In this document: one piece after another, positions 29,274 to 51,176 of the stretch
Layout: the number at the start of each line of letters is the position of its first letter
Numbering within the stretch: position 1 is the first letter of the stretch
NCBI GenBank assembly: GCA_965199755.1
Contig: CBDASZ010000001.1
Coordinates: forward strand, 737,509 to 801,508
DNA: 64,000 nucleotides
Source of the DNA: an uncultured candidatus Porisulfidus sp.
GTDB lineage: Bacteria > Pseudomonadota > Gammaproteobacteria > Poriferisulfidales > Poriferisulfidaceae
Reading direction: 5' to 3'
Position numbers and translations under genes: made by a program
The notes under the pieces: model-generated
Database searches by the model: none
What the model was told of the DNA's origin: nothing
What the model saw: only the letters and a program-made list of their open reading frames with translations

Positions 29274-29576
29274 GCGGGCGTGGCGAAATTGGTAGACGCA
29301 ACGGACTTGAAAATTTGAGTGCTCCGTGGGAAACCGCGGATGCAGAACCGCTCAAATTCGGGGAACCCTGAAATATGGCAATCCCGAGCCAAGCTCCGCT
29401 CTATTTGAGTGGAGAAGGTGTAGAGACTAGACGGGCGGCACCTAAGGTCAAGGCTAAGGTGAAGGGATAGTCCGGACCACAAACCGGATCCTGATCCGGG
29501 CGGCGCAAGCCGTAGTTGGTGTGAAAATCCGTAGGGCGAATAGCCCGTGGGGGTTCAAGTCCCTCCGCCCGCACCA
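29274..29576 (+). tRNA. tRNA-Leu (anticodon UAA) interrupted by a group I intron. Exon 1 is 29274-29308 and exon 2 is 29524-29576, giving an 88-nt mature tRNA.
   Basis: The acceptor 'gcgggcg' pairs with 'cgcccgc', followed by 'a-cca'. There is a D-arm, and an anticodon stem 'acgga'/'tccgt' with loop 'c-t-t | a-a-a-a' split after U34. It has the long variable arm 'agggcgaatagcccgt' and the T-arm 'gggggttcaagtccctc'. The gly-cys-leu(UAA) context matches E. coli glyW-cysT-leuZ. Confidence 0.85.
29309..29523 (+). ncRNA. Group I self-splicing intron (IC3-like) inserted between U34 and A35 of tRNA-Leu(UAA).
   Basis: The 5' splice site follows a U. P1 forms as exon 'actt' with intron 'gagt', giving the U-G wobble. 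P2 is 'ccgtgg-GAAA-ccgcgg', with a GNRA loop. The core 'gaaggtgtagagactagacgg..cacctaaggtcaaggctaaggtgaagggatagtccgg' matches the conserved R/S (P7/P3/P8-P9) elements of the Azoarcus and cyanobacterial tRNA group I ribozymes. It is also similar in 'caaattcgg..tatggcaa..cgagccaagct'. It ends in omega-G ('gtgtg'). Confidence 0.85.
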
Positions 29577-46547: not shown

Positions 46548-47483
46548 TCAAGCCAGGCACTGCTTAAGATTTTTTGCCAGATTGCGCATCATCTCGAAGT
46601 ACAGATCGGGGCCATCAGCAAGATCGGCCCCAAGCGGGTCCAGCATCCCACTGGAAGCTTCACTGCCTTCAATTACAGTTTGTATCAGACGGTCCGAGAA
46701 TTGAGGTTCGCGAAATACACATCGTGCACCGGTTGCCTTTAATTTATCACGCATTTCCTGAAGACGTGCTGGCGGCGGAGTTTCGCCGGAGGGGTGCGTG
46801 ATGCTGCCGACGTTATTCAGCTGATATGCCTTCTCCAGGTACTGATAGGCGTCGTGAAAGACAATGAATGGTTTGCCGCGCACGTCAGCGAGGATGGTTT
46901 CCAACTCTTTCTCCAGAGCGTCAATGCGCGCAATGACCTTCAGGGCGTTGGCTTTATAGGTTTTGCGGTTGTCAAAATCAATGGCGCTCAACTCTTTTAC
47001 GATCCACATCACCATGCGCCGGGCGTTATCCGGATCCAGCCAGACGTGTAAGTCGGGAACATCGTGTCCATGATCATGTCCGTGATCATGATCGGCATGC
47101 CCGTCCTCCCAGGGACCGCCTATCCGAAATGGGTGCAGCGAAAGATTCGCGTCATTAGCCGCTGTTGATACCTTAATTCCGTCGGGCAGGGTCTGGAGCG
47201 TGGACTCCATAAAAACCTCAAAACTATCTCCCATATATAGGATAAGTTTGGAGTTTTGCACTGCACTTACTTGCGAGGGCTTGAGCTGAAAGTTATGCGG
47301 TGTGGTCGCACCTTTGAGGATAAGAATGGGTTCTGTAATATCGCCCGCGACGCCGGAGACAAGCGAGTGAAGTGGCTTGACCGTGGTCACAATGCCGCCG
47401 GTTTTCCCGAATTCAGATTCGGCGAAGGCCAATCCTGGGAAATGCAGAAGCAGAAGAAGCAAGATCGAGGTGCGAATAGGCAT
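46548..47483 (-). CDS. znuA: Zinc ABC transporter substrate-binding protein ZnuA.
   Basis: A signal peptide and the His-rich loop 'HADHDHGHDHGHD'. It is divergent from zur-znuCB. Confidence 0.9.
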   Translation of the reverse strand: MPIRTSILLLLLLHFPGLAFAESEFGKTGGIVTTVKPLHSLVSGVAGDITEPILILKGATTPHNFQLKPSQVSAVQNSKLILYMGDSFEVFMESTLQTLPDGIKVSTAANDANLSLHPFRIGGPWEDGHADHDHGHDHGHDVPDLHVWLDPDNARRMVMWIVKELSAIDFDNRKTYKANALKVIARIDALEKELETILADVRGKPFIVFHDAYQYLEKAYQLNNVGSITHPSGETPPPARLQEMRDKLKATGARCVFREPQFSDRLIQTVIEGSEASSGMLDPLGADLADGPDLYFEMMRNLAKNLKQCLA

Positions 47484-47527
47484 ATTAAGGAGTACCTGTA
47501 GTTGGTAGAATAGGGGATCTTGAAAAG

Positions 47528-47549
47528 ATGTTATATTATACTATAACAT
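47528..47549 (+). promoter_or_regulatory. Zur box (Zn-uptake regulator operator) in the znuA / zur-znuCB divergent promoter region.
   Basis: The near-palindrome 'ATGTTATATTATACTATAACAT' resembles the gammaproteobacterial Zur consensus GTTATA..TATAAC. It lies 10 nt upstream of zur and 45 nt from the znuA start. Confidence 0.7.
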
Positions 47550-47558
47550 TCTTCGGGC

Positions 47559-48041
47559 ATGCACATTGCATGTTGGGATCTTATTATGAAACATCGCATG
47601 GAGCATGATCGTTTTGTAGATCGCGCCTTGCAGCGTGCAGAGCAAATCTGTCAGGATCATGGGGCTCGCTTTACCCATTTGCGCCGGCGTGTGCTGGAAA
47701 TCATCTGGGCCAATCACACTCCGTCGAAAGCCTATGACATTCTGGCTGTACTGATGCGGGAAGACGCTTCCGCGAAACCACCGACCGTCTACCGGACGCT
47801 GAACTTTCTGATGGAGCACGGGCTGGTACACAAGATCAATAGTCTGAACGCCTACATGGGTTGCGCGCATCCTGACGCGCATGAAGAGTGTCAGTTTTTG
47901 ATCTGCAGAAAATGTGGCGTGGTTGAAGAATGCCGCAATCCGGAAGTCACTCAGGCCGTCAGCAGTACAGCTAATGCGAGCAAGTTTCATCTCCAGAAAA
48001 CAGAAGTAGAGCTTTCTGGTGAATGTGCGGCGTGTCTGTAG
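47559..48041 (+). CDS. zur: Zinc uptake regulator Zur (Fur family).
   Basis: A Fur-family DNA-binding region and the C-terminal 'CQFLICRKCGVVEEC'. It is the first gene of the znuCB operon, a Pseudomonas-like arrangement. A shorter start at Met10/Met14 is possible. Confidence 0.8.
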   Translation: MHIACWDLIMKHRMEHDRFVDRALQRAEQICQDHGARFTHLRRRVLEIIWANHTPSKAYDILAVLMREDASAKPPTVYRTLNFLMEHGLVHKINSLNAYMGCAHPDAHEECQFLICRKCGVVEECRNPEVTQAVSSTANASKFHLQKTEVELSGECAACL

Positions 48042-48054
48042 TGAGGAATTAATT

Positions 48055-48780
48055 ATGGGCACTTTGATTGAGGCGAAAAACATTCACGTCTTCCGCCATA
48101 AAAAACATATTCTCGACGATGTTTCGGTGCACATCGGAGAGCGCGATTTCATCACCATCATCGGTCCGAACGGAGCCGGGAAATCAATGTTGCTGAAATG
48201 TCTGATCGGCTTCTACGAACCCAACAGAGGCAGTATTCAACGCCAACCAGGATTACGGATTGGCTATGTTCCGCAGCGCCTGACGCCGCATCCCTCTATG
48301 CCGATTACGGTGCATCGCTTCCTGTCTTTGCGCAAGCGCACCACTGAGACTCATTTGCAGCGCATCGTGCAAGAGACGCATATCGAAAAGTTTCTGGAAT
48401 CGCCGCTGTCGACCTTGTCGGGCGGAGAATTGCAGCGTGTGCTGCTGGCGCGCAGCCTGCTGGTCGATCCACAACTGCTAATACTGGATGAAATATCCCA
48501 GAATCTGGACATCACCCGGCAAGTGAGTTTCTATCGATTGCTGGAGCAGATCTATGAAGAGCATGAACTCAGCATCCTGATGGTGTCGCACGATCTGCAC
48601 ATGGTGCTGGCGTCGACCCAGAGAGTCATCTGTTTGTTTCACCACGTGTGCTGCTCCGGGGAGCCGCAAGCCGTCACCAAGGATCCCCAATTCATCTCAC
48701 TGTTCGGCGATGATATGGCTGAAATGATGGCGATCTACCAACACAGTCACGACAAGCATCAGCATCATGAGCACACTTGA
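48055..48780 (+). CDS. znuC: Zinc ABC transporter ATP-binding protein ZnuC.
   Basis: The SD 'gaggaa' and Walker A 'GPNGAGKS'. The signature is 'LSGGELQRVLLAR'. The C-terminus is His-rich, 'HSHDKHQHHEHT'. The ORF-track extension from 48019 is rejected. Confidence 0.9.
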   Translation: MGTLIEAKNIHVFRHKKHILDDVSVHIGERDFITIIGPNGAGKSMLLKCLIGFYEPNRGSIQRQPGLRIGYVPQRLTPHPSMPITVHRFLSLRKRTTETHLQRIVQETHIEKFLESPLSTLSGGELQRVLLARSLLVDPQLLILDEISQNLDITRQVSFYRLLEQIYEEHELSILMVSHDLHMVLASTQRVICLFHHVCCSGEPQAVTKDPQFISLFGDDMAEMMAIYQHSHDKHQHHEHT

Positions 48781-49579
48781 CATATTGTTCGAACCGTTTC
48801 TTGTGCGCGCGGTCATCGGCGGGGTCGGGGTTGCGATTATTGCCGGCGCTATTGGCTGCTTAGTGGTCTGGCGTCGCATGGCCTATTTCGGTGATTCGCT
48901 GGCGTACAGCGCCTTGCTCGGTATTGCACTAGGATTGGCCGTTGGCATCAATCTGAATCTCAGCACGCTGCTGACGTGCTCCGTCTTTGCAGTGGCATTG
49001 TTGTGGCTGCAGCAAAGAAAGATTCTGGCGACCGACACGCTGCTGGGCATACTGGCGCACGCCGCACTGGCCGCAGGCATGATCACCCTGAGTTTTCTGG
49101 AGCAGGAGAGGGGATTGCAGACGTATCTGTTTGGCGATATTCTGACGGTGACGACGCAGGAGTTGTGGTGGATTTATATTGGTGGCGCACTGATTCTGCC
49201 GCTGCTGGCCTGGAACTGGTCGGCGCTGGTGCTGATGACCATCCACGAAGATCTGGCGCGGGCGGAAAATATCAACACCATCTTCACGCAAATGCTGCTG
49301 TTGTTTTTGATGACTTTGGTGGTCGCGGTCTCGATTCGCATCGTAGGTATTCTGCTGATCACTTCGCTGTTGATTATTCCGGCTGCCGCTGCGCGTTTTT
49401 TGGCGCGCACTCCGCAAACCATGGCGATAACCTCCGCACTGGTCGGCGTCCTCTCCGTGCTCATCGGGGTATATAGCTCATTATATTTTGATACGCCCTC
49501 TGGGCCGTCCATCATCATGGCAGCAACTTTTCTGTTTATGCTATTGCTTTCTCTCTTCTCCCATCGCATGAGGTATTAA
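48767..49579 (+). CDS. znuB: Zinc ABC transporter permease ZnuB.
   Basis: 270 aa and multi-TM. It overlaps znuC by 14 nt. Confidence 0.9.
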   Translation: MSTLDILFEPFLVRAVIGGVGVAIIAGAIGCLVVWRRMAYFGDSLAYSALLGIALGLAVGINLNLSTLLTCSVFAVALLWLQQRKILATDTLLGILAHAALAAGMITLSFLEQERGLQTYLFGDILTVTTQELWWIYIGGALILPLLAWNWSALVLMTIHEDLARAENINTIFTQMLLLFLMTLVVAVSIRIVGILLITSLLIIPAAAARFLARTPQTMAITSALVGVLSVLIGVYSSLYFDTPSGPSIIMAATFLFMLLLSLFSHRMRY

Positions 49580-49581
49580 TA

Positions 49582-50994
49582 ATGCGTTCTCTTATTTTCT
49601 TTGTACTGGCGGCTGCGGCAACGACCGTGAGTCCGACCTTCGCGGCGAAAGGGCATGACCATTCAGCGCACGCAGGTGAGGGTTTTTACGCGGACATTCA
49701 TACCAAGGTGCATGCGGATAATATCGTTTCCTCCGAGGAAAGCGACGGGGAGTTCGTTGAAATCTATACGCACTCGCATTTTGACGTCGGCGGCTCATTG
49801 GGCGAGTACTTTTCCATTCATGCGGGCTTCAAACTTGAAGGTGAACCTGCCGGACATGCCCATGGATCTGGACCCGCGCTTGCCGTGCCAGATGGCAGTC
49901 ATCGGTTCTTTGATGACCACCCGCTGTTGATCGAGCAATTGAGGTTGAGCTTCAGCAACGGCCCGTTTTCGCTTTATGCGGGTAAATTCAATCCGATTGT
50001 CGGCTTCGACTATGAGCGCTTCCCCGGCGTGTACAGTTACCAGACCGTTGAGGAATACGCGATTCGGGAGCGCATCGGTGTGGGTGGCGCGATGAAGTTC
50101 AATGCCGCGGAGCGTGGCACACACAAACTGGATATATCAGGCTTCTTTGCCGACACCACGTTTTTGAGCGATTCCATAATCACGCGGCGTGGACAGACCG
50201 ACGAAGAAGATGGCGGCGTCAGCAATACCGAAGACCTGTCTTCCTTTGCTATCTCGCTCGGTGGGACGGATTTCTACTCGCTGACCAATGACTTTGTCGA
50301 GGGACTGTCGTATCGAGTCGGATACGCGAAACAGAAAGCGGGAATGTGTGAGGAGACCGATGAAAGACGCATGTCCGCCTCTCTGGAATACAAGCATGTG
50401 TTTTCTCGCGACCTGAGTGCCCGTCTGGTCACCGAATATATGGATATTGATCACTTTGGCGGCGTGGACGCGCATGACCGCTCACACGGCATGGTGGCTC
50501 TGGGTTGGGATTACAAGCAGTGGAATCTCTCCATGTCGTACATGCACGTCAACAACAAGTTGCGGCAAATGGACCTGATCGAAGCGATGCACGAACATCA
50601 TGGCGAGGAAGAAGAAAATGAAGAGCACGATGAAGGTCATGCAGAGGATGATCACGCGGATGAGGACGAGCATGGGCATGATGAAGAAAGTGGGTGCGTA
50701 GCTCATGGACACGAAGACGAACATGGCCATGAAGAGGGCGAGGAAGATGGACATGTCGAAATGGTGTCCGCCATGGAAGAGGAGCCTCACGATGACGAGG
50801 AAGATCATGGGCATGGGCATGAAGATGAACACGACCACGGCGGCGAGGGCTTGGACGGTCATATCTTTCAGGTCTCAGTCGGCTACCGATTCGACAATGG
50901 CGTCGGCATTGACTGGGGCTACCAGTACGTGGACGAAGAAGGGGAGATCACCGAACGCACCGGTTTGATGCTGAGTTTCGGCTACGCTTTCTAG
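49582..50994 (+). CDS. Putative outer-membrane beta-barrel protein with a large His/Asp/Glu-rich (metal-binding) loop. It is co-transcribed with zur-znuCB.
   Basis: It starts 3 nt after the znuB stop. It has a signal peptide 'MRSLIFFVLAAAATTVSPTFA', alternating amphipathic beta-strand patterns, and a C-terminal 'SFGYAF' aromatic terminus. An 85-aa region about 30% His lies at nt ~50587-50856. Confidence 0.7.
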   Translation: MRSLIFFVLAAAATTVSPTFAAKGHDHSAHAGEGFYADIHTKVHADNIVSSEESDGEFVEIYTHSHFDVGGSLGEYFSIHAGFKLEGEPAGHAHGSGPALAVPDGSHRFFDDHPLLIEQLRLSFSNGPFSLYAGKFNPIVGFDYERFPGVYSYQTVEEYAIRERIGVGGAMKFNAAERGTHKLDISGFFADTTFLSDSIITRRGQTDEEDGGVSNTEDLSSFAISLGGTDFYSLTNDFVEGLSYRVGYAKQKAGMCEETDERRMSASLEYKHVFSRDLSARLVTEYMDIDHFGGVDAHDRSHGMVALGWDYKQWNLSMSYMHVNNKLRQMDLIEAMHEHHGEEEENEEHDEGHAEDDHADEDEHGHDEESGCVAHGHEDEHGHEEGEEDGHVEMVSAMEEEPHDDEEDHGHGHEDEHDHGGEGLDGHIFQVSVGYRFDNGVGIDWGYQYVDEEGEITERTGLMLSFGYAF

Positions 50995-51083
50995 TCGAGC
51001 AGGTCACCCGCGACAGTCACAGCGGTCTTGTCGGCAAGCGGCAAGACCGAAGAGATTCTTAATGGTATCTGAGAGCCGTCAAT

Positions 51084-51176
<93 letters not shown>

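Follow-up and report, generated by a model that had tools for sequence, protein, structure and literature searches.

Organization of the zur-znuCB-porin locus

We analysed a 64,000-nucleotide (nt) stretch of DNA from an uncultured candidatus Porisulfidus species (GenBank assembly GCA_965199755.1, contig CBDASZ010000001.1, positions 737,509 to 801,508 of the forward strand; hereafter the window, in whose numbering coordinates are given), in which the genes of a predicted zinc importer are followed by an open reading frame (ORF) for a histidine-rich protein of the outer membrane. This ORF (49582-50994, plus strand) encodes 470 amino acids (aa), 38 of which are His, and it is the fourth gene of an operon with zur, znuC and znuB; on the evidence of the ORF itself, AlphaFold2 (AF2) models, Foldseek comparisons and the homologs of its family, its product is predicted to be a 16-strand porin. 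The ATG of the porin gene lies 2 nt past the znuB stop codon (TAA-ta-ATG), with a GAGGT ribosome-binding site (Shine-Dalgarno) 7 nt 5' of the start. A sequence-only reading of this DNA had placed the gene directly after znuB on the same strand, and this position was borne out, with a gap of 2 nt instead of the 3 nt given there.

The first gene of the operon, zur (47559-48041, plus strand), encodes the Zn uptake regulator; it matched Pfam FUR (4.3e-15), and its best NCBIfam match was Zur (4.7e-32, below the equivalog cutoff). It is followed on the same strand by znuC for the ATP-binding cassette (ABC) ATPase (48019-48780; NCBIfam ZnuC, 1.5e-78) and by znuB for the ABC permease (48767-49579; Pfam ABC-3, 1.7e-65; NCBIfam ZnuB, 1.9e-69). 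The ZnuC match begins at residue 13, and the ATG at 48055 (MGTLIE...) is likely to be the true start of znuC. Divergent from the operon, znuA (46548-47483, minus strand; Pfam ZnuA, 2.2e-67; NCBIfam ZnuA, 6e-55) encodes the periplasmic Zn-binding protein, which has a His-rich loop, GHADHDHGHDHGHD, at aa 128-141 (nt 47061-47102). The C-terminus of ZnuC is also a His-rich tail (YQHSHDKHQHHEHT, nt 48736-48777), which could be a cytoplasmic Zn-sensing or regulatory element.

The znuA/zur intergenic region contains a 22-nt palindrome at 47528-47549 (ATGTTATATTA|TACTATAACAT, 10 of 11 positions complementary), within which the Zur-box core TGTTATANTATAACA is matched twice, at overlapping positions. 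These two were the only matches to TGTTATANTATAACA with up to 2 mismatches in the window, where 0.03 would be expected from dinucleotide shuffles. The palindrome covers the -10 element of a promoter-like site for zur-znuC-znuB-porin (TTGAAA-18 nt-TAACAT, 47520-47549, plus strand; 9 of 12 matches in a consensus scan), a site that is not enriched over shuffles and is weak evidence by itself. We regard the palindrome as a putative Zur-regulon operator ahead of zur-znuCB-porin. A Zur box or promoter belonging to the porin gene itself, inside znuB, was rejected, as none was found in the promoter and Zur-box scans. Because the znuB-porin spacer is only 2-3 nt both in the window and in the closest relative (L001), the porin gene depends on the operator of the operon, and the earlier placement of the gene under the box at 47528-47549 agrees with both the predicted operator and the operon position.

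Predicted barrel fold

AF2, run with a 90-sequence alignment of the family, modelled the window porin with a predicted local distance difference test score (pLDDT) of 81.8, a predicted template modelling score (pTM) of 0.78 and 283 residues above a pLDDT of 90. The model has 16 strands, with short even-to-odd turns and long connections only from odd to even strands, as in porins, and a short helix in the loop between strands 5 and 6, where porins have L3. A 382-aa homolog from Sneathiella glossodoripedis, in which loop L7 is about 10 aa long, was modelled with the same 16-strand topology (pLDDT 87.1, pTM 0.84). Foldseek comparison with the PDB gave matches to outer-membrane channels only (E 1e-9 to 4e-12, at most 13% identity; no more than 11% between the window porin and OmpF, PorB, VhChiP or OprP), namely VhChiP, PorB, DcaP, OmpF/OmpK36, OmpU/T, Omp32, OprB, OprP (2o4v), OprO (4rjw) and the Occ family, and the top porin matches had a probability of 1.00 and TMt values of 0.56-0.64. 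The modelled architecture is that of Porin_4 (MBB clan): a 16-strand antiparallel barrel whose loops are long on the extracellular side and whose turns are short on the periplasmic side. The protein is thus predicted to be a 16-strand outer-membrane porin barrel, structurally in the porin superfamily; two models and porin-only matches uphold the outer-membrane beta-barrel that had been proposed from the sequence, and a soluble non-barrel fold was seen in neither model.

In sequence, the window porin matched Pfam Porin_4 with 16.1 bits (E = 0.011), under the 27-bit gathering threshold, indicating a divergent branch and not a core member of Porin_4; among the 90 relatives, 73 matched at E <=0.01, the best at 5.7e-10. 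A profile-to-PDB search with the family returned marginal OmpK35/PhoE matches (E ~0.002), a single-sequence PDB search with the window porin returned one spurious match (E = 0.25), and no NCBIfam model matched the window porin. Pfam Zip matches in three relatives were set aside as probably low-complexity matches to His-rich loops.

Both ends of the protein carry export signals of the Sec and outer-membrane type, as judged by inspection. The putative signal peptide comprises aa 1-21 (MRSLIFFVLAAAATTVSPTFA, nt 49582-49644), with predicted cleavage at MRSLIFFVLAAAATTVSPTFA/AK (TFA/AK); AF2 modelled this region as a helix (2-15) followed by residues of low pLDDT, and an equivalent hydrophobic N-terminus is present in all family members. 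The C-terminal strand, GLMLSFGYAF (50962-50991), ends in Phe, as is typical of an outer-membrane beta-signal, and the family consensus is ...YSxxF. The signal peptide and the aromatic 'GYAF' terminus had both been recognized in the sequence-only reading, and we read them in the same way. From the even number of strands and the C-terminal beta-signal, and assuming standard porin topology, both termini would be periplasmic and the odd-to-even connections extracellular.

Loop L7 and the conserved histidines

The long His/acidic segment of the window porin is an insertion in loop L7 (aa 327-425, 99 residues; nt 50560-50856, plus strand) that contains 19 His, 44 Asp/Glu, 1 Cys and 4 Met. In the AF2 model it connects strands 13 and 14 and has a pLDDT of 37-59; its position in this connection and its low pLDDT point to a disordered extracellular loop and not a plug, so that the mapping of the segment to one or the other, suggested earlier as a check, came out as a loop, surface-facing under standard porin topology. 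Within it, nt 50587-50856 encode 90 residues (aa 336-425) with 21% His, 47% Asp+Glu and 14% Gly. The strong enrichment claimed for this part therefore stands, the probability of at least 19 His in 90 residues being ~1e-7 against the porin's own background of 5% His, but the figures of about 85 residues, about 30% His and more than 50% Glu/Asp do not.

We rejected the possibility that L7 is a tandem-repeat or assembly artefact: Tandem Repeats Finder reported only a 16-nt CATGGG x2.7 in the L7 DNA, which is not a simple tandem repeat; beyond L7 the reading frame stays open through C-terminal strands alignable with the family; and P0002, the closest relative, also carries an insertion there, a shorter one of 41 aa. 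Two further ORFs overlap the L7 coding region, one of 126 aa in antisense (50482-50862, minus strand) and one of 87 aa in another frame (50705-50968, plus strand); as genes they were rejected, their likeliest origin being the GAA/GAT/CAT-rich (purine-rich) codon composition.

A homolog search returned at least 134 proteins, nearly all without a name and 380-420 aa long, and a profile search of 1.84 billion representatives gave 1,045 clusters at E <=1e-3 and 547 at E <=1e-30. Of the 90 aligned sequences, 78 belong to a His-rich branch, as do 24 of the 148 top representatives. Its members have 16-31 His per protein and share three His motifs: H-D-H-x-x-H after the signal peptide, Y-T-H-S-H on strand 2 and E-G-E-P-A-G-H-x-H-G at the base of L2. 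Nine His (H25, H27, H30, H64, H66, H92, H94, H181 and H298), located in the N-terminus, strand 2, L2, strand 7 and L6, are 92-100% conserved among the 78 His-rich members and near 0% in the His-poor members, except for H30 (33%) and H181 (50%). E60, E88, D143, E422 and E455 are also specific to the His-rich branch.

In the window porin, the N-terminal motif of the mature protein (AKGHDHSAHAGEG, nt 49645-49683, plus strand) includes H25, H27 and H30, which are 94-96% conserved in the His-rich branch; it has a low pLDDT and is predicted to be either periplasmic or inside the barrel lumen. Strands 1-3 (nt 49684-49836, plus strand) have a polar side formed by D38, H40, K42, H44 and D46, by E60, Y62, H64, H66 and D68, and by S78, H80 and K84, with H64 conserved in 99% and H66 in 97% of the branch; this side would line the lumen. 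At the base of L2, the motif EGEPAGHAHG (nt 49837-49866, plus strand) contributes H92 (92%) and H94 (100%).

The lengths of L1, L3, L4, L6, L8 and the turns are invariant in the family, and poly-His/acidic insertions occur at three sites only, namely L2 (25 of the 78 His-rich members, the longest reaching 81 aa and containing 22 His), the N-terminus (5 of 78) and L7 (3 of 78). At 99 aa, the L7 of the window porin is the longest in the family, compared with 41 aa in the nearest relative and a family median of 9. These loop lengths indicate that the L7 of the window is a lineage-specific elaboration and that the real signature of the family is the core His set; the loop on which the sequence-only reading had focused is real, but it does not define the family, which the nine His do. 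N-terminal extensions of more than 100 residues ahead of the barrel were also observed in three relatives of 517-542 aa (P0117, P0140 and P0203); in P0117 the stretch ahead of strand 1 contains 22 His, and the whole of P0140 contains 56. Part of the P0117 extension may be upstream znuA-like sequence, if its predicted start is wrong.

The His-poor paralogs have 2-10 His and lack the three motifs. Sneathiella glossodoripedis has one copy of each kind: that of L041 is His-rich and Zur-boxed, whereas that of L077 is His-poor and has a different context. In 9 of 25 His-poor loci (L077, 5734-9676; L060, L061, L065, L066, L071, L079, L081 and L085), the porin gene adjoins genes for imelysin (Peptidase_M75, EfeO-like) and a di-haem oxidoreductase, and in one (L068, 4735-8451) it adjoins feoB; neighbours of these three kinds were found in none of the 56 His-rich loci. 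These neighbourhoods hint that the whole family may consist of metal-uptake porins with an iron-linked branch.

Zur boxes and znu linkage across genomes

One genome per GTDB species was scanned with a 9-sequence alignment, and 80 loci were returned, with 56 classed as close homologs (at least 200 bits) and 25 as distant and His-poor. The close homologs occur in Alpha- and Gammaproteobacteria from the sea and other aquatic habitats, including SAR11, SAR116, Sneathiella and others. Linkage to znu/zur genes was found for 43 of the 56: in 19 the porin gene directly follows znuB, as in the window, in 20 it is divergent from znuA and in 4 it is znu/zur-linked in another way, the other 13 close copies being solitary. 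The partners in the linked loci were always ZnuA-type Zn2+ binding proteins and Zur.

Zur boxes with up to 2 mismatches were present upstream of 49 of the 56 close homologs within 200 nt and of 52 within 500 nt. Eleven of the 13 solitary copies have a box of their own, and in one Sneathiella locus (L032) a solitary, Zur-boxed porin gene stands among unrelated genes. In loci of the znuB-porin type, the box between znuA and zur is usually joined by another in the spacer ahead of the porin gene, and in the Pelagibacteraceae loci two tandem perfect Zur boxes are followed by a small ORF and then by the porin gene. Over the 641 kb of loci, 74 sites with up to 1 mismatch were found, compared with an estimated ~0.1 expected by chance, and all were located 5' of the porin gene or in intergenic regions of the znu cluster, except for two in L048 whose context is unassigned. 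None of the 25 His-poor loci had a Zur box, and a zur homolog was present ~5 kb away in one of them. Membership of the Zur regulon, which had been proposed from the operon position in the window, is thus strongly corroborated by the homologs (52 of 56 boxed, 43 of 56 znu/zur-linked and 11 of 13 solitary copies boxed).

Two further observations were made in these loci. The boxed ORF directly 5' of the porin gene in Pelagibacteraceae (L042, 5532-5962; also L044 and L050) encodes a Cys-containing protein of 125 aa with no Pfam match, which may be an unrecognized SAR11 member of the Zur regulon. In the closest relative (L001, 1-2015; ENA ERZ25068043, 2.63 Mb), the called gene upstream of znuA is listed at 21,867 aa, a length that would mean a giant protein unless it is an artefact of annotation.

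A proposed zinc channel and its alternatives

The maintenance of Zur regulation in two proteobacterial classes and in loci of several different layouts, together with a His content that tracks the Zur box, is the strongest evidence for a role in zinc starvation, and we consider it very probable that the protein is a Zur-regulated porin serving zinc acquisition. More specifically, sequence and context favour, with fair rather than high confidence, a TonB-independent, passive Zn2+-selective channel that is made only at zinc scarcity and feeds ZnuA and ZnuBC. In such a channel, the flexible His/Asp/Glu extracellular loops (the 99-residue L7 here, L2 in most relatives) would act as a low-affinity antenna that concentrates Zn2+ at the pore mouth or strips it off weak ligands there, as may be compared with loop 3 of ZnuD. 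Zn2+ would then descend from one His/carboxylate site to the next, along the lumen side of strands 1-3 and the bases of L2 and L6, a ladder that would include H64, H66, E60, E88, H92, H94 and H298 and would parallel the arginine ladder of OprP. At the periplasmic side, ZnuA would receive Zn at its His-rich loop from the N-terminal H-x-H-x-x-H motif, and the passive flux would owe its driving force to ZnuA, as a high-affinity sink, and to the ATP that ZnuBC hydrolyses.

Several points weigh against this proposal. General porins already pass Zn2+, and the benefit of a dedicated passive Zn channel is argued by analogy. The N-terminal His expansions of some relatives would be periplasmic, so the antenna idea cannot explain every insertion. 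The lumen orientation of the His is derived from strand alternation and hydrophobicity, not from coordinates, and the family is known here from sequences, genome context and predicted structures. As for regulation, the Zur-box core TGTTATANTATAACA is a proteobacterial consensus from the literature and not a model trained on these taxa, and the window scan found no separate Zur box before the porin gene, whose Zur control there follows from its operon position.

These points leave room for other explanations. An ordinary, non-selective general porin that is co-regulated with znu and raises permeability at Zn starvation, its His richness being incidental or structural, would agree with the fold, which matches that of general porins, with the weak Porin_4 matches in 73 of the 90 members and with the NCBI record of one member, annotated plainly as 'porin'. 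We nevertheless consider it very unlikely, given that His content and motifs split cleanly with Zur control inside one family (16-31 versus 2-10 His), that His/Asp/Glu-rich insertions have evolved repeatedly at three sites and that S. glossodoripedis keeps both the L041 and the L077 copy. A channel might instead carry a small Zn-ligand complex (a zincophore or a Zn-amino-acid chelate) or another divalent metal (Ni, Co, Mn or Cu) and not free Zn2+: seawater Zn is mostly bound to organic ligands, a 16-strand pore passes solutes of a few hundred daltons, the structural neighbours VhChiP, DcaP, OprP and the Occ family are substrate-specific, and His-rich motifs bind Ni, Co and Cu too. However, metallophore biosynthesis or export genes were found by the porin gene in none of the loci examined, its partners are invariably those of Zn2+ uptake, and a lumen lined with His and carboxylates, as predicted here, suits direct ion coordination, which makes this explanation distinctly unlikely.

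The insertions themselves, with loops that are long, predicted to be disordered and extremely rich in metal ligands, and with a site and length that vary as expected of a capacity or avidity function, would also suit a surface Zn-binding protein, in which the barrel anchors His/acidic loops that sequester or store Zn, or take Zn from a secreted carrier, and transport takes place elsewhere. Extracellular Zn-binding proteins are known in Zur regulons, for example ZepA (PMC10957091). Yet about 50 of the 78 members lack a long insertion and still have Zur control and the nine core His; the conserved His are found in the strands and loop bases of a porin-sized barrel and not in the displayed loops, and a 16-strand barrel exceeds typical display anchors in size. 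We therefore regard a surface-binding function as unlikely.

Combining the passive Zn2+ channel with the distribution of the family, we tentatively suggest that the His-rich branch may be the long-assumed, never identified TonB-independent Zn2+ gate for ZnuABC, with a His/carboxylate ladder and expandable antenna loops, and possibly a major Zn route in marine oligotrophs (SAR11, SAR116, Sneathiella-like Alphaproteobacteria and uncultured Gammaproteobacteria); in that case, the family as a whole would consist of metal-cation porins, with the His-poor branch recruited to iron systems.

Relation to known outer-membrane systems

The crossing of the Gram-negative outer membrane by Zn is understood only for TonB-dependent receptors such as ZnuD and is otherwise ascribed to unspecified general porins. 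In a 2018 review of Zur regulons, the outer-membrane components listed for Gram-negative bacteria are all TonB-dependent receptors. Searches of the full-text literature, in which subscription journals are incompletely covered, yielded no Gram-negative porin that is Zur-regulated or specific for zinc, although an earlier mention is possible. With no curated family match and no paper found, proteins of this kind are indeed poorly described, as had been supposed, and the finding is better described as a conserved, uncharacterized family of predicted Zur-controlled, histidine-lined porins, in which the window porin has the most extreme loop elaboration.

As is predicted of the window porin, ZnuD, a TonB-dependent receptor for Zn in Neisseria and Acinetobacter, partners ZnuABC at the outer membrane and is regulated by Zur (PMC4557270, PMC2895646), and the His/Asp/Glu clusters of its loop 3 (HSHEYDDCHAD and HDDDNAHAHTH) have been proposed to act as a 'fishing net' for Zn (PMC4557270). 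However, ZnuD has 22 strands and a plug and is TonB-energized, whereas the window porin is modelled with 16 strands, no plug and no TonB box. In Pfam, neither TonB_dep_Rec (PF00593) nor Plug (PF07715) matched the window porin, and only ~13 residues lie between its signal peptide and strand 1. The absence of plug and TonB features means that any transport by the window porin must be passive. The distinction from the ZnuD type that the sequence-only reading had drawn is thus retained for this protein of 470 aa.

MnoP (blr0095) of Bradyrhizobium japonicum is a Mn2+ porin (Hohle et al. 2011, as cited in PMC6011978). It is similar in concept, being a metal-regulated, TonB-independent outer-membrane channel for one divalent metal that is co-regulated with an inner-membrane importer; the window porin shows the same combination of control by a metal regulator, here predicted, and coupling to the cognate importer, in the zur-znuCB operon and in the 43 linked loci. 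MnoP differs in its metal (Mn), its regulator (Mur) and its partner (MntH). No Pfam or NCBIfam model ties the window porin to MnoP. To our knowledge, no His-rich signature is known for MnoP.

OprP and OprO of Pseudomonas (2o4v and 4rjw) are likewise 16-strand porins that are induced by nutrient limitation and have a ladder of pore-lining residues (Foldseek TM ~0.51-0.56), but they are anion-specific, with an Arg/Lys ladder, are regulated by PhoB and show a sequence identity of 12%; in the window porin, the ladder would be a His/Asp/Glu ladder for cations. With the classical porins (Porin_4, OmpF, PorB, Omp32 and VhChiP), the window porin shares 16 strands, long odd-to-even loops, a helix-containing L3 and a C-terminal Phe; it differs from them in its nine subfamily-specific His, its N-terminal His motif and its predicted Zur control. 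We know of no general porin that combines nine conserved His, an N-terminal His motif and Zur control.

MspD of Mycobacterium smegmatis is a porin that is induced by Zn starvation and by zur deletion and that aids Zn homeostasis with ZnuABC (PMC13098993). Its fold, however, is the octameric MspA type found in mycobacterial outer membranes; neither its sequence nor its architecture is related to that of the window porin, and it is not reported to be His-rich. The copper barrels PcoB and CopB (PMC9210255, PMC12509749) resemble the window porin in being outer-membrane barrels with an electronegative ion pathway and a disordered region rich in metal ligands, but they belong to a copper-resistance operon induced by metal excess, and their disordered region is N-terminal; neither was among the top 50 Foldseek matches. 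ZepA was rejected as a counterpart, being an unrelated exoprotein.

If the proposed function is correct, a Zur-controlled, His-lined porin would be a second dedicated outer-membrane mechanism for Zn, one that requires no energy input. SAR11 genomes were found to have no siderophore or haem uptake systems, high-affinity Zn uptake being the one trace-metal trait retained (PMC4771312), and the presence of the porin family in SAR11 could therefore affect the modelling of marine Zn acquisition. The His-rich porin would also offer a metatranscriptomic marker for Zn limitation and a natural scaffold for studies of metal selectivity in beta-barrel pores, and the hypothesis lends itself to direct testing, since the gene is present in cultured Sneathiella (S. 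glossodoripedis JCM 23214, S. chungangensis KCTC 32476 and S. litorea DP05; loci L041, L039 and L043).

Other features of the window

No canonical terminator was called after the porin gene. A GC-rich hairpin of 11 bp without a U tract (51023-51049, plus strand; -29.6 kcal/mol, z = -2.2) is located 29 nt past the porin stop codon and may mark the end of the operon; the next feature after it is a tRNA-Ser(GGA) gene (51086-51176), convergent with the porin operon.

Elsewhere in the window, a tRNA-Leu(UAA) gene at 29274-29576 (plus strand), which received no ARAGORN call, is apparently split by a group I intron (Rfam RF00028, 61.5 bits, 29299-29488), with the exons GCGGGCGTGGCGAAATTGGTAGACGCAACGGACTT / AAAATCCGT...GGTTCAAGTCCCTCCGCCCGCACCA around it. 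This intron position is classic in cyanobacteria and plastids and is unusual for a gammaproteobacterium.

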